Position numbers and translations under genes: made by a program
The notes under the pieces: generated by a model
Told to the model about the DNA's origin: nothing
Databases searched by the model: none
The model's input: only the letters and a program-made list of their open reading frames with translations
Source of the DNA: a virus
Taxonomy: Duplodnaviria; Heunggongvirae; Uroviricota; Caudoviricetes
Length of the DNA stretch: 55,128 nt
IMG/VR virus record: IMGVR_UViG_2728369181_000005
Strand: one strand, 5' to 3'
Shown: in pieces, positions 3,013 to 55,128 of the stretch
Numbering within the stretch: the stretch's first letter is position 1
Layout: each line of letters opens with the position of its first letter

Positions 3013-3693
3013 TCATCGCCATTGCTCTCCAAATACAAAACCAATTTCAGCCAGTGCTTCGTCCATTTTTTCGATGAACTCCGGCACCATCTCGTCAAAA
3101 CTCGCCATGTACTTTTCATCCCGCTCAACCACGACATAATGCAGGCCTTCACGCTTCATTCGTGGGTCATAGTTGGCAAAGTACCAGGCATCTTTTCGTG
3201 TCACCCACATGCTGTACTGCACCTGGGCCATGTAAGCCGACTTTATGGCCTCGAAACCACCGAGCCGGAACTTCATGAAATCCCGGGAGGTAAACGGGCA
3301 TTTCAGCTCAAGGCCATTGCCGTCACTGCATAAACCATCGGGAGAGCAGGCGGTGCGCATACTTTCGTCGCGATAGATGATCGGGGATTCAGTAACATTC
3401 ACGCCGGAAGTGAATTCAAACAGGGTTCTGGCGTCGTTCTCGTACTGTTTTCCCCAGGCCAGCGCCTTAGCATTAACTTCCGGAGCCACACCGGTGCAAA
3501 CCTCAGCCAGCAGGGTGTGGAAGTAGGACATTTTCATGTCAGGCCACTTCTTTCCTGAGCGGGGCTTTGCTATCACGTTGTGAACTTCTGAAGCGGTGAT
3601 GACGCCGAGCCGTAATTTGTGCCATGCATCATCCCCCTGTTCGACAGCTCTCACGTCGATCCCGGTACGCTGCAGGATAATGTCCGGTGTCAT
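3013..3693 (-). CDS. exo: Lambda exonuclease (Red-alpha)
   Basis: 226 aa, essentially identical to lambda Exo as recalled ([40 protein letters not shown]...). Confidence 0.97.
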
Positions 3694-4475
3694 GCTGCCA
3701 CCTTCTGCTCAGTGGCTTTCTGTTTCAGGAATCCAAGAGCTTTCACTGCTTCGGCCTGTGTCAGTTCTGACGATGCGCGAATGTCGCGGCGAAATATCTG
3801 GGAACAGAGCGGCAATAAGTCGTCATCCCATGTTTTATCCAGGGCGATCAGCAGAGTGTTAATCTCCTGCATGGTTTCATCGTTAACCGGAGTGATGTCG
3901 CGTTCTGGCTGACGTTCTGCAGTGTATGCAGTATTTTCGACAATGCGCTCGGCTTCATCCTTGTCATAGATACCAGCAAATCCGAAGGCCAGACGGGCAC
4001 ACTGAATCATGGCTTTATGCCGTAACATCCGTTTGGGATGCGACTGCCACGGCCCCGTGATTTCTCTGCCTTCGCGAGTTTTGAATGGTTCGCGGCGGCA
4101 TTCATCCATCCATTCGGTAACGCAGATCGGATGATTACGGTCCTTGCGGTAAATCCGGCATGTACAGGATTCATTGTCCTGCTCAAAGTCCATGCCATCA
4201 AACTGCTGGTTTTCATTGATGATGCGGGACCAGCCATCAACGCCCACCACCGGAACGATGCCGTTCTGCTTATCAGGGAAGGCGTAAATTTCTTTCGTCC
4301 ACGGATTAAGGCCGTACTGGTTGGCGACGATCAACAATGCGATGAACTGCGCATCGCTGGCATCGCCTTTAAATGCTGTCTGGCGAAGAGTGGTGATCAG
4401 TTCCTGTGGGTCGACAGAATCCATGCCGACACGTTCAGCCAGCTTCCCAGCCAGCGTTGCGAGTGCTGTACTCAT
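3690..4475 (-). CDS. bet: Recombination protein Bet (Red-beta, single-strand annealing)
   Basis: 261 aa matching lambda Bet ([37 protein letters not shown]...); ATGA overlap with exo. Confidence 0.97.
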
Positions 4476-4480
4476 CCGTT

Positions 4481-4777
4481 TTATACCTCTGAATCAATAT
4501 CAACCTGGTGGTGAGCAATGGTTTCAACCATGTACCGGATGTGTTCTGCCATGCGCTCCTGAAACTCAACATCGTCATCAAACGCACGGGTAATGGCTTT
4601 TTTGCTGGCCCCGTGACGTTGCAAATGATCGATGCAGAGTGATTCAAACAGGTGCTGTGGAAGACCTTTTTCCATGTCGTCTGCCAGTTCTGCCTCTTTC
4701 TCTTCACGGGCGATCTGCTGGTAGTGACGTGCCCAGCTCTGAGCCTCAAGACGATCCTGAATGTAATAAGCGTTCAT
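4481..4777 (-). CDS. gam: Gam (RecBCD inhibitor), short form
   Basis: 98 aa matching lambda GamS ([21 protein letters not shown]...VDIDSEV). The upstream extension seen in lambda long Gam is not open here. Confidence 0.93.
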
Positions 4778-4840
4778 GGCTGAACTCCTGAAAATATCGC
4801 CCGCGAAATGCCAGGCTGATTAGGAAAACAGGAAAGGGGA

Positions 4841-5251
4841 TTAGTGATTCAGGCCGTTACCGCGTCCGTCGAGAAAAACTTCCACGAGCAAATCACGGGT
4901 ATAAGTGCGCTCGATGCCGCGATGCAGATATAGCCGTCCGCGTAAATTAGCTGATGCAGTCCAGGTACCATCTTTGTGTTTGACCAGCATTCCTGGCATG
5001 ACCGCACCTCGATTAACGGTCTGCGTTCCGTAATGTTGATGAACCATAAAAACTCCTGCCCGTAAGCTGGGCTGCTGAACATATAGAGACTTCTGCGCGT
5101 ATTCAGGCGGTGGATGGCCGCCGGTTGTCATAACTAAGTCGCCTCGTTGAAGCGACTGAGGTATGAAGTGTTGAGTTGATTCCAGCTGGTCACACCGACG
5201 TTCACGCGTCCGCTTCACCCCTCGCACTCCCCGGAGCCTGCTGAAATTCAA
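4841..5251 (-). CDS. Hypothetical protein at the N-gene position, Arg-rich N-terminus
   Basis: 136-codon ORF between the putative pL and gam; N-terminus RLRGVRGVKRTRERR is arginine-rich like N-type antiterminators, but no alignment to lambda N recognised. Confidence 0.35.
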   Translation of the reverse strand: MNFSRLRGVRGVKRTRERRCDQLESTQHFIPQSLQRGDLVMTTGGHPPPEYAQKSLYVQQPSLRAGVFMVHQHYGTQTVNRGAVMPGMLVKHKDGTWTASANLRGRLYLHRGIERTYTRDLLVEVFLDGRGNGLNH

Positions 5252-5299
5252 GCTGCGGATCTAAGCGGTCATCGCAACGGTGAATCAGGTGATTGCCGT

Positions 5300-5450
5300 A
5301 TCGTTGTGTTGTTGCGATGAATTCATTTAAAACTATAGTTGTTTTATCGTCAACAACAAAAGTTGTTTTGTTGGTTGTTTTAGATATAACTGGTTGTATT
5401 TAAGATGGATTTATTTTGTGACTTGCATCGCATAGCGATAACTGAAGCGA
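5300..5450 (-). promoter_or_regulatory. Putative oL/pL region
   Basis: Contains AACTATAGTTGTTTT and TGGTTGTTTT motifs resembling the AACAACCATAGTTTT / ATGGTTGTT operator-like palindromes between cI and cro; position equals lambda oL/pL. Confidence 0.35.
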
Positions 5451-5492
5451 GGTCGTGGTGGTTTTTTGAACGGTTTGTGTGATGAGGGGAGG

Positions 5493-5528
5493 CAAAAGAA
5501 AACCCGGCACGGTGGCCGGGTTATTAAT
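5493..5528 (-). terminator. Rho-independent terminator after the rex-slot operon
   Basis: CCCGGC-ACGGTG-GCCGGG hairpin (5503-5520) followed on the minus strand by TTTTCTTTT; about 28 nt beyond the stop at 5556. Confidence 0.6.
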
Positions 5529-5555
5529 AAGGAATATCACATACAAAAATAAATT

Positions 5556-6383
5556 TTAAACTTGGGGAAGTATTTTTTTTGCAAAATCAATAGTTTCTTT
5601 GTGGTTGGATGCAGGTATATGATTTATTTTCTTAGCATCCATAGTTCTCTTTATGATGTCAATAACTTTGCTTTGGCCTGCGTTTGGTGTTTCAGGAGTT
5701 TCAATTGTGAATAAAATGTCATCAAGTGAAAGCAGGTTTTCTTCTGCTGCTCGAGTTATTCTCATCACCCAAGTATCACTATGCTCCATCATTTTTCCTG
5801 GTTCAGCTTGAGTGAATGCCAGAGGTTTGATGGCACATTGGATCCTGTCATGCTTCTTGGCGACCAATGGCATTGAGAACTTTGCGAAATACCCATCAAT
5901 GGTTGCTTGTTTGAAGACGTTCTTCAATCCATCTATTCTATCGATACTTCGTTTTAGCTCTCTGGCTAGAACATCTTCACGGCGCTCTTTTGTATAGTCA
6001 GAGTGGTTTACATATTTATTGTAAATGCGGGCCAGCTCTTCTTTTGGGTTTTCGCTGAGAATCACTCTCGTAGAACTGAACTGAAAAATTGATTCTTTTT
6101 TGTTTGTAAAATATCTGAAGAATTGTGCAAGTTGTTGATGTCCAACAATCTGGGTCGCATGCATTTTTGCGAACTGTAGTTCTCTTTGTATTGAGTCTTT
6201 TGCTACAGGGAAAATACAATCATCATGGAAAAAATTCTTTACACGAGAGTCATTTCGCTTTGTGAGCTGGAAATCAAAGTAATTTTCTTTTGGCGCGCAC
6301 AGAAGTACGCCTATGTTTGCGAACTCTTCAGTCTCCGCATAAGGCGCATAGCGAACGATGCTATATAGGCATGGAGTTGTCAT
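5556..6383 (-). CDS. Hypothetical protein, second gene of the rex-slot operon
   Basis: AT-rich ORF; ATG at 6383 overlaps the upstream stop as ATGA. N-terminus YSIVRYAPYAETEEFANIGVLL is reminiscent of DUF3037-type proteins (from memory, unverified). Confidence 0.6.
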   Translation of the reverse strand: MTTPCLYSIVRYAPYAETEEFANIGVLLCAPKENYFDFQLTKRNDSRVKNFFHDDCIFPVAKDSIQRELQFAKMHATQIVGHQQLAQFFRYFTNKKESIFQFSSTRVILSENPKEELARIYNKYVNHSDYTKERREDVLARELKRSIDRIDGLKNVFKQATIDGYFAKFSMPLVAKKHDRIQCAIKPLAFTQAEPGKMMEHSDTWVMRITRAAEENLLSLDDILFTIETPETPNAGQSKVIDIIKRTMDAKKINHIPASNHKETIDFAKKILPQV

Positions 6384-7132
6384 TCTATTGCGCTCCAAAA
6401 TTCATCACAATCACCTTTGTCTAGCGTAGTGCAGACAAAAGGTAAAAACTCCTCATCTACTATCCACTCTTCTGGAATTTCGTCAAGGATAGCAGGAAGC
6501 TTGTGTAAACTGTTAACGACCCTCTGGCGGTACTCTACGCGATCCACTAAATCATATTGCCATTTGCGGTTACCAGGGCCGTACACGTGCACAGAAAAAT
6601 CTTCAGGTCCAGCATTCTGATCAAATGAGAGATTATGGTCAATCAGATAATACTTATCGTTACTGATGTCATAAAGGATGTTAACGTTTCCACCTTTGTC
6701 AGTAAGCGTTCTGTCTGCATTTAATATCCATTTATCAAAAACATAGATTAATTTTTGCTGTTCGACTGGGATGATCGTTTCGTTTCTTGACTGCGTAAAC
6801 GTTAACGCTATTGCACCGTCAATGAACAATGAAGCAAAGGCATATCCTGTACAAATTTGTTGCTGCAGATCAGGTGAGTACTCTATAAGTTCCTCTGGCA
6901 CAAATACGATTTTAAAGTCAGGTAAAGGAAGGCCGATATCATTAGCCAAACACGCCGAAATGAACTCAGCTAAGAGATTTTTCGGGGGCATTGATGGTTT
7001 TGACTTCAAAACATACAACTGCCCATCATCACATTTGCAAAGAAATGGCTGAGTGGAACCTTCATTGATGCGACGTATTACCTCAACGACATTAGGTATT
7101 GCACTATTGCTGCTCGCTACGCACTCCATCAC
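6380..7132 (-). CDS. Hypothetical kinase-like protein, first gene of the rex-slot operon
   Basis: 250-aa ORF 119 bp downstream of cI, same strand. Motifs suggest a protein-kinase-like fold: YVLK (beta-3 Lys), NADRTLTDKGGN (catalytic-loop-like D...N), LIDHN (DFG-like Asp). Confidence 0.6.
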   Translation of the reverse strand: MMECVASSNSAIPNVVEVIRRINEGSTQPFLCKCDDGQLYVLKSKPSMPPKNLLAEFISACLANDIGLPLPDFKIVFVPEELIEYSPDLQQQICTGYAFASLFIDGAIALTFTQSRNETIIPVEQQKLIYVFDKWILNADRTLTDKGGNVNILYDISNDKYYLIDHNLSFDQNAGPEDFSVHVYGPGNRKWQYDLVDRVEYRQRVVNSLHKLPAILDEIPEEWIVDEEFLPFVCTTLDKGDCDEFWSAIE

Positions 7133-7251
7133 TAACCCTTATGTGATTCAAGTCTTCCATCTCATTACTCCGCATCTCAAAGAGCGGTTTAACACTGCGT
7201 GTTTAAAGAAAAACAACAGGCCTATTGCTGTAACTGTTTTTTAGCCTCACT

Positions 7252-7941
7252 TTAACCATGCTTCCTATATGTCTGCGGCATGCTCCCAATAACCTTACCG
7301 AAGATAAACACCCGGTTCATCTCGTCTTTCTCGATCGGGTCCCACGGTGAGTAGCTCTTGTTATCAGAGATAACCAGCAGCTTATCCTTCATCATTTGCA
7401 GGCGCTTTACATGGGCTGTGTCGTCGTACAGAAACGCATAGATGCCATCACCGTCGAAAGATTTAACCGTGATATCAACGAACAGAAGATCACCTGGTTC
7501 GATCGTTCCTGACATGCTGTCACCGCGTACGTTAATGATGCGGATATTTTCTGCCTTCCTACCATCGAACATGTGACGAGCATCGTCAAACGAGTACTCA
7601 ACCGAGCGTAGAACTTCTACAAACTCACGGTTGATGACTCCCGGCCCGGCACTCACTTCTATATCAAGAACGTCAATTTTAAAGTATTTGGAATAGCTGA
7701 CAGTTGATGGTATTGGTTGCACTGTACTGTCTGACATATTTCCAACGCCAGAAGATAACCATTCTGCGCGCACACCCAAAGCGTTCGCGATCTCCACGAT
7801 TTTAGTTGTTTGGTTAGCTTTCCCTGTTTCGATTTTCTGAATAGCAGCTTGGCTAACCCCGACCAAATCCCCAAGCGCCTTTTGTGTAAGGCCTCGCGCT
7901 AATCTGGCTTCTTTAAGTCTTTCTGAGAGTGTTGTTTTCAT
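7252..7941 (-). CDS. cI: CI-type prophage repressor (HTH-XRE plus S24 LexA-like peptidase domain)
   Basis: N-terminal HTH (LTQKALGDLVGVSQAAIQKIETG) and C-terminal RGDSMSG...K autocleavage motifs; start at ATG 7941; divergent from cro across a 104-bp operator region. Not lambda immunity. Confidence 0.9.
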   Translation of the reverse strand: MKTTLSERLKEARLARGLTQKALGDLVGVSQAAIQKIETGKANQTTKIVEIANALGVRAEWLSSGVGNMSDSTVQPIPSTVSYSKYFKIDVLDIEVSAGPGVINREFVEVLRSVEYSFDDARHMFDGRKAENIRIINVRGDSMSGTIEPGDLLFVDITVKSFDGDGIYAFLYDDTAHVKRLQMMKDKLLVISDNKSYSPWDPIEKDEMNRVFIFGKVIGSMPQTYRKHG

Positions 7942-8045
7942 AGTCCAAATGTACAACCAAGGTTTTATTCCATCAAACGAAAATGGTTGTTGACTAAAAA
8001 CAACCATAGTTTTAATCTTGATTCAAATTAACCACGGAGGTTGTT
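7942..8045. promoter_or_regulatory. oR/pRM/pR immunity switch region
   Basis: Palindrome ATGGTTGTT-8 bp-AACAACCAT overlapping a TTGACT (-35, 7990-7995) / 17-bp spacer / TAATCT (-10, 8013-8018) promoter facing cro; related half-sites further left. Confidence 0.6.
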
Positions 8046-11745: not shown

Positions 11746-12009
11746 CGACATGATTTATCTGGGGATATATTCTTACGAGTTGCCGGAAAATCGGCACACG
11801 GGATTGGCGTCCCGGAATACTACTCAACGCATGCCGCGTTAAGCGGTTTTTTTATGCGCTAAGCACGGCTACGCCCAAATTATGGTGGGCTGTGTGAGGG
11901 CTTCTTCGGGAGCGCCGGGTTTGAGTAGCCGGTTACGCCAACCTTGCACAGTTCACCACCAGTCGATTGGCGTCGTTGGTGGTGATGGTTAACCTGATGA
12001 GGTGATACT

Positions 12010-12618
12010 ATGACTACTCAATTAGCATTCCACAAAACGACGTTTACCCCGATTTGCCACAATAACAGAATTTGGCTTACTGCCACTGAAGTTGGTTTAG
12101 CTCTGGAATATGCGGACGATAAAGCAGTTCAGCGTATTTACTCTCGTCACTCAGATGAATTTACAGATATGATGACAAGGGTGGTCAAAGTGACCACCCC
12201 TCGTGGAATGCAGGAGTCTCGAGTATTTAGCCTTCGCGGAGCCCATCTGATCGCCATGTTTGCTCGTACTCCTGTGGCCAAAGAATTCCGCCGCTGGGTG
12301 CTGGATATTCTCGATCGAGAAATTCAACAATCCCCAATCACAAAACAATTCACTGATAACGAACTTTGCACACTTGCTTGGTTATGGCGAGCAGGGGATA
12401 TGATGTTAACTGCCTGCCAGAACGTTACTCCACTTCTTCAGGTTGCGGAGCACCGCGAAGCTGGTCGCTTTACTTCTATCGGGCAAGAATATCCCCAGAT
12501 ACTACATAAGGCGCGCGAAATCCTTGCCAGAGAAACGGCACATGTGAAACTCCAGCCTTGGCAGGATAATAAGTGGAGCAGGGTGTTGCCACATTTGCGT
12601 CAGGATAGATTGCAATAG
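12010..12618 (+). CDS. BRO-N-like / antirepressor-like protein
   Basis: 202 aa; the N-terminal FHKTTFTPI...IWLTATEVGLALEY pattern resembles the BRO-N DNA-binding domain of phage antirepressors. Confidence 0.5.
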   Translation: MTTQLAFHKTTFTPICHNNRIWLTATEVGLALEYADDKAVQRIYSRHSDEFTDMMTRVVKVTTPRGMQESRVFSLRGAHLIAMFARTPVAKEFRRWVLDILDREIQQSPITKQFTDNELCTLAWLWRAGDMMLTACQNVTPLLQVAEHREAGRFTSIGQEYPQILHKAREILARETAHVKLQPWQDNKWSRVLPHLRQDRLQ

Positions 12619-16166: not shown

Positions 16167-17249
16167 TTAGAACTGATAAACCAGACCTACAGCGACGATG
16201 TCGTCGGTATCAATACCAGCTGTTTTGGTAAACTTACTATCGTCAATTAAGTTGATTTTGTAATCAACAAAAGTGGACATGTTTTTATTAAAGTAGTAAG
16301 TAGCACCGACATCGACATACTTGACTAAGTCTCGGTCACCATGAACACCAAGGTCTTTACCTTTTGACTGAAGGTAAGCAACAGATGGGCGCAGACCGAA
16401 GTCAAACTGATATTGTGCTACTGCTTCAAAGTTTTGTGCTTTGTTTGCAATATGGTTATTACCAAAAACGGTCATATTCTGAGTTTCAGAATATGTGGTA
16501 GCCAGATAGATATTGTTCGCATCATATTTCAGGCCTGCAGCCCATACTTCCGCATTTTTGCCGGAGGCATTGAATTTGCTCTTACCATAGGCGACCTGAC
16601 CGTCAGTGCGATCTGATTTAGCATAGGTTGCACCCACGCCGAATCCTTCATACTCATAAGTAGTGGAGAAACCGAAACCATCACCATTGGCTTCAGTTAC
16701 GTCAGTGCGGTCATTTTTACCCTGATACTGAGCAGCAAAGTTCAGGCCATCGACCAGACCAAAGAAGTCGTTGTTACGATAAGTTGCAACACCAGTAGTG
16801 CGACCAGTCATGAACACATCTGTTTGGGTCCAGGTATCACCACCGAATTCTGGCAGAACGTCAGTCCACGCACCGATGTCGTATGCTACACCGTAGTTAC
16901 GGCCGTAATCGATTGAGCCGTAATCACCAAATTTCAGGCCTGCAAATGCAAGACGGGTTTTGTCTTTGGAAGAACCTTGAGATTCAGCACGGTTGCCTTT
17001 GAATTCATATTCCCACTGACCGAAACCAGTCAGTTGATCGTTGATTTGGGTTTCACCTTTGAAGCCAAGACGGGCATAAGTAGTATCACCATCATCTGCA
17101 TCATTAGAGGAGAAGTAGTGCTTGGCATTAACTTTCCCGTATAGATCCAGCTTGTTACTGTCTTTATTATAAATTTCAGCTGCCTGAGCAGACATCGCCA
17201 TCAGTACTGATGCAGCTACAGCAGAAATTGCCACTGTTAATTTTTTCAT
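16167..17249 (-). CDS. nmpC: OmpC-family general porin (NmpC/Lc-type prophage porin)
   Basis: Signal peptide [23 protein letters not shown], porin hallmarks (AEIYNKD..., C-terminal ...VAVGLVYQF); opposite strand to flanking phage genes. Confidence 0.9.
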
Positions 17250-17675
17250 TGTACGCCCTTTTTTTGAACTATTATAAAAAAATGATGTCACTGCGCGATA
17301 AATATTCATCTAATCAATGTGATTATTTCAAGATGTAAGTTTTAGTTTCTCATTTAATTTGTGAAGTAGATCTCTATTTTTATCTGAACCTTTTCTATCT
17401 AATCCTATTCATAGCTCTTGTCTGAACAAAAATAAATCTATTAGCTAATTTATATTAATGGCACTTATTTATAAGTGCTCTATAATTCTTTAGCTTAATT
17501 TAAACAAACTAAAAATAACATCGGAAATTATTGACTGGTTATTTGTTGAAGTTTTCTTATGCATTTGTGGTGGTGTTTTGAACACTCGGTGGCATTCTCA
17601 CAAATATCATTTAGTAGTTTACGTACGTAAAAAATTGGTTATGCTGTTAAGAGTGGTTACTTCGTCACACAGCTT

Positions 17676-53244: not shown

Positions 53245-55128
53245 TTACTCCTGAATTCCTGGTAATACTTCCGGTATAATGGTAATTGGGTTTTGGGATG
53301 GGGAGATTTCAAATGGGAAAGTCGTACGCTCAAACAATGGTGAGACTATATCAACTTTAAGCTTAAGCTGTTGCTCAGTAGATTTATTCGTTAATTTGAA
53401 TACTGTTGCATCAACCCCGATGGTAGATCTAGCTAGTGTATCAAGTTCTTGATCGCTACTGTTCAATGTCATTTCAAGCATCACTGGTGTCAACATAGCA
53501 CCGAGCTTCATACGAAGGAGACGATCTTCATCGACAAACTGATTTGGAGCCGTATGATTTAAGGCATCATAAATATCATTATAACACATTGCAAGTTCTT
53601 TCTGAGTTTTAGCATCAAATCCAGCAGCTTCTAGTGCAGCACGATCTGGTTTTCCAGTTCCAATTTCTTCTATCGCCCCGTAATAGTTTTCAATTGCTCC
53701 TCGACGTAAAAAAAAGCACCCAAGATTACTTAATGCCTTCAAAAGCACATTGTATTTTCTACAAAGACTTTCGGCTCGAGAAGATGCTTCTGTACCAAAG
53801 CTTGTTGGATCAGTAAGAATACGAGCTAACGTCACGCGACGTTTGCTATCAGCCCCAGAATCTTTACTTGACCAATTAGGATAACTTTCAGCTGCTATCT
53901 CAACCTCTTCCTTAAAGTCAGTCATGAAGGTTGTAATTTCTGCACGCAAATCTCTGTCAAGATCAGCGAGACTTGTTCTTCCGACTTGGTCTGCAATCGC
54001 CCTAGCTTCTGTTAATCCACTGAAATAGTTGACTAAATTATTATCGTCAGCTAAGGCGTCGAGATCTGCAAGCAAACTAACTCGTTTATTCATCAAGCGA
54101 AACAGTTTGGCAGCTTCGATAAACTCTCCCTTACCAGTAACTGGAAGTATCTGAGCATTACGTGCAAGGAGACGGAGACCGAACTTTCTTGCAAGTTGTG
54201 TTACTATTATTTCATCACTAGGACCTTCGACTAATAAAACATGCTCAGCGAACATAGCTGTTCGATGGGTAGCGCTAAGGCGTGCTATTAATGCGGCCAG
54301 TTTTGTGCTGCAAAGAATATCTGCATTTTTTGGTATCTGAACTGGAGGTTGCTGTGCGGAGTTGAAAAAGATTATTTTTGATAACTCTTCAATTCGTCGC
54401 AGCGGTAGTATTGAAGGTGAATGTGTCGCTATGATTATCATTTTTTTCTTTGGATTTTGAGGATCACCGGCTACCAGTTCCATCTCTTCGAGCAGAAATG
54501 CTTGATGCTGTGGGTGTAGGGAGATTTCTGGCTCATCGATAATCAATGCACCTATTTCGTCATTATGAATTGCAGTTAGTAACGAGACAACCTGCAGTAT
54601 ACCGCTGGCTTCGTGATTAGCTGCGTAGCCATCGCCGCCAGTGACGGATGTTATTCTAATAGTCATTCCATTTTGAGACCACTTGAGCTCAACGCTTCGA
54701 TCAAACAACTGCTGTAGGCGTGCTTCAATCTTTAGTTTGAGGTCTGGTCTCTGGTCTAAGATCATTAAGTCACCAGTAACACTTTCATAATTCCACCATT
54801 GCTCAACGTAACTCGCGTTTCCAATAGCAGCATCGCTAGAATTGATGCCATAAGGAGAATCTGAGCTAGATCTATAGGATTCAAATGGACTACACCGTCC
54901 TGCCGAAAGAAAATGTACTTTTCTATTTTGTCCAATTATTCGGTTTTCACTCAATAATTTTGATTTTATTGCACGCAGTGCTCGGGTTTTACCACTACCA
55001 TTTGGCCCGACCATCGTTGTAATACCTGGTCCGACTTGTATTATCGCTTTTGTGGATGAATTATCGACTAATGAATATTCAACGTCCATCGGCCACATAA
55101 GGTCTTGATCTGCAGTATCTAAGCTCAT
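53245..55128 (-). CDS. OLD-family ATPase-Toprim nuclease (P2 Old / Gabija GajA / PARIS-like)
   Basis: 627 aa; Walker A GPNGSGKT near the N-terminus, LIIDEPEISLHPQ Walker B-like, then Toprim-like VLLVEGPSDE and DLDALADD; AT-rich; start codon sits exactly at the window edge. Confidence 0.7.
   Translation of the reverse strand: MSLDTADQDLMWPMDVEYSLVDNSSTKAIIQVGPGITTMVGPNGSGKTRALRAIKSKLLSENRIIGQNRKVHFLSAGRCSPFESYRSSSDSPYGINSSDAAIGNASYVEQWWNYESVTGDLMILDQRPDLKLKIEARLQQLFDRSVELKWSQNGMTIRITSVTGGDGYAANHEASGILQVVSLLTAIHNDEIGALIIDEPEISLHPQHQAFLLEEMELVAGDPQNPKKKMIIIATHSPSILPLRRIEELSKIIFFNSAQQPPVQIPKNADILCSTKLAALIARLSATHRTAMFAEHVLLVEGPSDEIIVTQLARKFGLRLLARNAQILPVTGKGEFIEAAKLFRLMNKRVSLLADLDALADDNNLVNYFSGLTEARAIADQVGRTSLADLDRDLRAEITTFMTDFKEEVEIAAESYPNWSSKDSGADSKRRVTLARILTDPTSFGTEASSRAESLCRKYNVLLKALSNLGCFFLRRGAIENYYGAIEEIGTGKPDRAALEAAGFDAKTQKELAMCYNDIYDALNHTAPNQFVDEDRLLRMKLGAMLTPVMLEMTLNSSDQELDTLARSTIGVDATVFKLTNKSTEQQLKLKVDIVSPLFERTTFPFEISPSQNPITIIPEVLPGIQE

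Follow-up and report, generated by a model that had tools for sequence, protein, structure and literature searches.

A copy of the HipAD anti-phage kinase module between cI and pL of a lambdoid Escherichia coli prophage

The window analysed here is the whole 55,128-nucleotide stretch of viral DNA (Caudoviricetes) deposited as IMG/VR record IMGVR_UViG_2728369181_000005. On its minus strand, between the gene of a cI-type prophage repressor and a putative oL/pL region, it carries two overlapping genes that end in an intrinsic terminator (5493–7251). A preliminary description, made from the letters and their open reading frames (ORFs), placed this pair in the slot that rexA-rexB occupies in lambda and proposed that it is an undescribed defence module. 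The position and the anti-phage function hold. The pair itself has already been described: it is an ordinary copy of HipAD (also DS-6 or PDC-M66), which consists of a HipA-like kinase and a DUF3037 protein, HipD. The features of the locus are as follows.

7252..7941, minus strand: cI-type prophage repressor gene, with HTH_3 and Peptidase_S24 (Pfam) and with RefSeq/GenBank annotation of identical loci
7133..7251, minus strand: 119-bp spacer between cI and the kinase gene, with an AAGGG Shine-Dalgarno sequence ahead of ATG 7129
6380..7129, minus strand: hipA-like kinase gene (HipA of HipAD, DS-6A, PDC-M66A), assigned from HipA_2, PDC-M66A, identity to WP_000389051.1 and an AlphaFold2 model
6380..6383, minus strand: ATGA stop/start overlap that couples the kinase gene and hipD
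5556..6383, minus strand: hipD gene (DS-6B, PDC-M66B), 275 amino acids (aa), with DUF3037 at aa 7–125 and a predicted restriction-endonuclease-like C-terminal domain at aa ~132–275
5493..5522, minus strand: intrinsic terminator closing the module, stem 5522..5501 plus T-tract
5320..5395, minus strand: putative oL/pL, with GTTGTT/AACAAC half-sites as in oR and a leftward-reading TTGACG −35-like hexamer

The kinase ORF spans 6380–7132 and encodes 250 aa when read from a GTG codon. Read from ATG 7129, one codon on, it encodes the 249-aa form found in RefSeq, and the AAGGG sequence lies 6 nt upstream of this ATG. The ATG of hipD overlaps the TGA of the kinase gene as ATGA. Both this overlap and the 119-bp gap after cI had been read correctly in the preliminary description, as had the foreign, AT-rich composition: the G+C content is 0.40 over 5556–7132, compared with 0.487 for the whole window and ~0.51 for the flanking recombination genes exo, bet and gam. 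On the minus strand, the terminator reads AACCCGGCC-ACCG-TGCCGGGTT at 5522..5501, followed by TTCTTTTG, with 8 pairs in the stem, 6 of which are G-C. It is strong, as described; the distance of 28 nt past the second gene has to be corrected, the stem beginning 33 nt past the hipD stop codon. An Rfam scan found no RNA elements inside the module. Chance ORFs are rejected by Pfam E-values of 1e-76 for the kinase and 7.5e-24 for the hipD product.

The GTTGTT/AACAAC half-sites at 5328–5395 recur as palindromes in the cI–cro intergenic region (7952–8006), indicating that oL/pL lies right downstream of the terminator and that the module is in the rexAB position. The assignment of oL/pL is putative and is drawn from this similarity. 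No terminator-like or consensus-promoter site was seen on the minus strand of the cI–kinase spacer, which points weakly to co-transcription of cI and the kinase gene from pRM. In addition, a search for a HipB-like operator or a promoter, which covered the spacer and a comparison with the upstream regions of the Salmonella and Pseudomonas homologues, revealed neither a conserved palindrome nor a consensus promoter.

HipAD was reportedly described by Brenes & Laub in 2025 (Cell Host Microbe). A paper that cites this work (DefensePredictor, Science 2026, PMC13092281) validated DS-6, composed of the HipA-related kinase DS-6A and the DUF3037/DUF1829 protein DS-6B, as an anti-phage system; its authors regard their discovery as independent and, with reference to Brenes & Laub, changed the name of the system to HipAD (PMC13092281). 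We compared the window proteins with the DS-6 reference sequences in Table S8 of PMC13092281, which come from an ECOR assembly. The kinase (from ATG 7129) is identical to DS-6A (WP_000389051.1, 249 aa) at 249/249 positions. HipD is identical to DS-6B (WP_000210934.1, 275 aa) at 273 of 275 positions (99.3%) and differs by two conservative substitutions, with T in place of S at residue 232 and A in place of S at residue 235. The window also agrees with the published system in the order and overlap of the two genes, in their domains (HipA_2; DUF3037 plus a DUF1829-like domain) and in Asp139, and both originate from prophages of ECOR-type E. coli.

A megablast search of phage records returned one full-length match, Escherichia phage PhiR5_1 (PV340545.1), with 99.5% DNA identity. 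Its depositors annotated the corresponding genes as 'HipA toxin', 'HipD antitoxin' and 'cI'. Around the module, the prophage of the window is a different mosaic from PhiR5_1, as judged by megablast. In PADLOC-DB v2, the kinase matches PDC-M66A (E 5.8e-15) and HipD matches PDC-M66B (E 4.3e-16). NCBIfam gives no meaningful match for either protein, and their PHROGs families, 3162 and 5137, carry the label 'unknown function'. The pairing, which the preliminary description did not recognise as a named system, is thus the defence candidate PDC-M66 in PADLOC, DS-6/HipAD in the literature and HipA/HipD in the annotation of PhiR5_1.

Very probably, then, the two genes are a copy of HipAD that a lambdoid E. 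coli prophage carries as a moron between cI and pL, and in which a HipA-like kinase toxin would be held by HipD and released on infection. Nothing that we found contradicts the identification as HipAD/DS-6/PDC-M66. The system has already been named, catalogued as a candidate in PADLOC and shown to defend, after cloning from ECOR E. coli of a version whose kinase is identical and whose HipD is nearly so. The present case has some value for calibration, in that a reading of the raw sequence correctly spotted a defence moron in the cI–pL hotspot as well as the kinase motifs.

The kinase matches the Pfam family HipA_2 (PF20613, HipA-like kinase) over profile positions 1–239 of 240 (E 9.9e-77). It contains the motifs YVLK (K42), NADRT (D139), DKGGN and LIDHN (D164). 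Across 45 kinase homologues, the invariant residues are K42, D132, N137, D139, R140, G146-G147-N148 and D164-H165-N166, which, by analogy, would fit the ATP-binding lysine, the catalytic loop and the metal-binding Asp. An AlphaFold2 model built on the alignment of these 45 sequences has a predicted local distance difference test (pLDDT) score of 89.3 and a predicted template modelling (pTM) score of 0.88. In Foldseek searches of the PDB, the model matches PI4KII-alpha (E 1.6e-6), H. pylori CtkA, Golgi casein kinase/Fam20, HipT, HipA and CotH. The predicted model thereby confirms an atypical kinase-like fold, in accordance with the kinase-like first protein of the preliminary description.

HipD matches DUF3037 (PF11236) at residues 7–125 (E 7.5e-24), so the DUF3037-type N-terminus noticed from its sequence is correct. 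Its N-terminal motif, YSIVRY-P-AETEEFANIG, is invariant. Pfam gives no helix-turn-helix family match for HipD. The predicted model (58 sequences; pLDDT 91.1, pTM 0.56) consists of two domains joined near residue 128. Foldseek returns no PDB match for it at E ≤ 1e-3 and only a weak enrichment of nucleases; the PDB likewise yielded nothing for HipD by sequence or by profile, and neither approach gave a confident structural relative of the DUF3037 domain. In the model, the C-terminal domain looks like a restriction-endonuclease-like fold that has no catalytic acids. The nuclease-motif positions, assigned by strand order, motif and secondary structure rather than by superposition, read P172-L/F173 and A184-I185-K186 in 58/58 homologues; they are hydrophobic or Ala and provide neither of the two metal-binding acids. 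Residues E136, K186, Q192, H201 and W205 are conserved in the same 58 homologues. Because the nuclease-like fold is without the two metal-binding acids, the domain seems better suited to a binding role, with DNA or the kinase as partner, than to cleavage.

Others have demonstrated the anti-phage function of the module, working with proteins that are identical to those of the window or nearly so. A low-copy clone of DS-6 protects MG1655 against Bas1 by ~10^5-fold, whereas the catalytic mutant D139A loses defence (PMC13092281). In the one listed replicate, −log10 of the efficiency of plating is 5.18 for the wild type and 0.88 for D139A (PMC13092281 Table S7); an earlier screen gave 3.9 against Bas1 (PMC13092281). 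The substituted residue is the Asp of NADRT that had been proposed as catalytic from the window alone. AlphaFold3 predicts a DS-6A/DS-6B complex with an interface pTM (ipTM) of 0.76–0.79 and a weaker DNA contact (ipTM 0.67), and the authors favour a toxin-antitoxin/abortive infection (Abi) model (PMC13092281). Our reading of the C-terminal domain of HipD as a dead nuclease would agree with this predicted DNA contact and with the published DUF1829 match. A distant HipA-like/DUF3037 pair, labelled PDC-M66 by PADLOC, is present in the Retron-Sda1 operon (PMC12548924). There, deletion of the HipA-like kinase gene abolished defence against Bas51, deletion of the DUF3037 gene was toxic, and neither the reverse transcriptase nor the non-coding RNA was required (PMC12548924). 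For this distant homologue, two points are thus established: defence needs the kinase, and cells suffer toxicity when the DUF3037 gene is lost.

In the mechanism that we propose, the small atypical Ser/Thr-type HipA_2 kinase encoded by the first gene would be the toxin and the effector. HipD, produced from the translationally coupled second gene, would bind the kinase and block its activity until a sensitive phage infects the cell and lifts this inhibition. The freed kinase would phosphorylate an essential target, so that phage production stops, probably through abortive infection. The target of the kinase, the trigger, the abortive outcome or cell fate and the binding of DNA by HipD are steps that we only infer. 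A more specific version, which we put forward tentatively and consider doubtful, makes HipD the sensor: its C-terminal domain, as a putative dead restriction-endonuclease fold, would recognise a nucleic-acid feature of the phage (for instance a modified base, DNA ends or the injected DNA), the DUF3037 motif would clamp the kinase, and the ligand would free the kinase, making the module a nucleic-acid-sensing kinase switch.

The whole module is present at ≥99% identity in 284 of 5,426 complete E. coli genomes, and all copies are chromosomal; the product names given by PGAP are 'HipA family kinase' and 'DUF3037 domain-containing protein'. The two loci inspected are lambdoid prophages at different att sites, one at tRNA-Thr beside proA and the other at tRNA-Arg with intD. 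Their repressor alleles differ, and the order kil - hipD - hipA - repressor is constant. In Salmonella, a pair with 43% identity occupies the equivalent position behind a cI-like repressor, and pairs in Pseudomonas and Sphingomonas sit outside recognisable lambdoid contexts. In all of these homologous pairs, the kinase gene comes before the DUF3037 gene and overlaps it by 4 nt. Sibling ECOR lambdoid phages share the conserved segment from the terminator to pL (5400–5526) and differ in their cargo. In PhiR47_2, the slot (3629–5057 of the compared locus) contains GevT/GevA, an overlapping two-gene pair annotated as toxin/antitoxin; in PhiR68_2 (3612–5067), it contains an unannotated overlapping pair of 341 aa and 149 aa. 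Since the conserved segment borders differing cargo in sibling phages, the cI-to-pL slot is a recombination-delimited cargo/defence hotspot.

Three other readings of the module are possible but less likely. The kinase might inactivate a phage protein directly and confer non-abortive immunity; HipD would then be no antitoxin, but a subunit that provides specificity or acts as a sensor. HipA_2 kinases are without a known host target, and loss of defence in D139A is compatible with either model. The fold of the kinase likewise counts in favour of this reading. Canonical HipA is only a distant structural relative of the kinase (Foldseek E 7e-4 to 5e-3, TM-score ~0.4); the model is no closer to it than to other atypical kinases such as PI4KII-alpha and CtkA, and sequence and profile searches of the PDB with the kinase found nothing, HipA included. 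This distant kinship is also a point against the mechanism proposed above, since the analogy with HipA (GltX phosphorylation, persistence) may not transfer, and so is the residual protection of ~0.9 log that D139A keeps in one replicate (PMC13092281). Against direct action on a phage protein, the DUF3037 gene of the homologous operon is toxic to delete in cells without phage (PMC12548924), which indicates a host target and therefore toxin-antitoxin behaviour, and the DS-6 authors likewise prefer the toxin-antitoxin/Abi model (PMC13092281). Direct action on a phage protein is thus unlikely.

Alternatively, the module could be mainly an addiction toxin-antitoxin system like hipBA, serving prophage maintenance or persistence, with defence as a laboratory side effect. 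Its toxin-antitoxin architecture is as this would predict, and its conservation at ≥99% across the 284 genomes would accord with prophages having spread it horizontally in recent times. Against this, the equivalent slot keeps the exclusion genes rexAB in lambda and holds other modules annotated as toxin-antitoxin (GevT/GevA) in sibling phages, and a low-copy clone gives ~10^5-fold protection (PMC13092281); we judge this explanation to be quite improbable. Most improbable is an effector role for HipD, as an active PD-(D/E)xK nuclease for which the kinase acts as sensor or regulator. The endonuclease-like appearance of its C-terminal domain is what suggests such a role, but the two metal-binding acidic positions are hydrophobic or Ala in every homologue aligned, Foldseek support is weak and absent at the threshold used, and deletion of the DUF3037 gene, far from being harmless, is toxic (PMC12548924). 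A kinase toxin restrained by HipD is the reading that we retain.

Several other features of the prophage were observed. The repressor ORF can be extended by 22 codons to ATG 8007, as annotated in PhiR5_1, and RefSeq homologues begin with MKTTLSERL at ~7941. The extension (7942–8007, minus strand) overlaps an operator palindrome at 7983–8007, and annotation of the longer form is probably artefactual. On the minus strand, no N or cIII gene is present between the putative pL (~5320–5357) and kil (4841–5131), gam, bet and exo; there is only a leader of ~190 nt (5132–5320), and the same arrangement is found in sibling ECOR phages and RefSeq prophages. An Rfam scan of this leader gave no match. Early leftward antitermination might use a cis-acting RNA here, as in HK022, or be lacking.

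On the plus strand, Rfam reports gathering-level matches to the Hfq-binding RNA isrK (11781–11853, 55.9 bits) and to C4 antisense RNA (11878–11963, 72.7 bits). A Bro-N/P22_AR_C antirepressor-like ORF (12010–12618, plus strand) follows directly downstream, and together these elements look, from their sequences, like a P1/P7-style c4-ant immunity cassette in a lambdoid prophage. A general porin gene (16167–17309, minus strand; Porin_1, E 2e-151) separates the Q region from the lysis genes and is antiparallel to the late genes; in sibling phages the prophage porin carries the annotation 'OmpD'. At the right end of the window, past the tail-fibre gene, 53245–55128 (minus strand) encodes a 627-aa OLD-family ATPase with TOPRIM (Pfam AAA_21/OLD-like_TOPRIM), which matches GajA (E 5e-22), AriA (6e-19) and Old (7e-18) in PADLOC. 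No helicase partner of at least 100 aa is present immediately downstream. The prophage, or an adjacent island, probably has in this gene a second defence function.

Among known systems, canonical HipBA, and also HipBST, resembles HipAD in having a HipA/PI3-4K-like atypical kinase toxin that is neutralised by a co-encoded protein, and the catalytic-loop Asp and the Mg-binding Asp are conserved. HipA targets GltX, and HipT targets TrpS. The canonical kinase has ~440 aa, whereas the window kinase has ~250 aa and no HipA N-terminal domain; the antitoxin HipB is an Xre-type helix-turn-helix protein encoded upstream, whereas the partner in the window is the downstream HipD, with DUF3037 and a putative restriction-endonuclease-like domain. 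Pfam matches of the kinase at E ≤ 0.1 include neither HipA_C nor HipA_N, HipA_2 alone being reported. Membership in canonical HipBA is rejected: HipA_C, HipA_N and HipB are absent, the gene upstream being the cI repressor, and the gene order is reversed.

Stk of phage 933W is a prophage tyrosine kinase of eukaryotic type that acts alone and excludes HK97. Like HipAD, it is a kinase beside a lambdoid prophage repressor and aborts infection by a heterologous phage; by this description, it would belong to a family different from HipA_2.

Lambda RexAB has in common with HipAD the location on the cI strand, from cI to oL/pL, the two genes ended by a terminator, expression from the prophage and the exclusion of other phages. 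Lambda Rex acts by way of RexB, which forms a membrane channel; HipAD combines a soluble kinase and its inhibitor, and the two systems have no sequence or fold relationship. Homology to RexAB is rejected, with no Rex family among the Pfam, PADLOC, NCBIfam and PHROG matches. The cargo in the slots of PhiR47_2 (GevT/GevA) and PhiR68_2 is likewise made up of two overlapping genes located between cI and the conserved terminator/pL, but the proteins are unrelated to HipAD.

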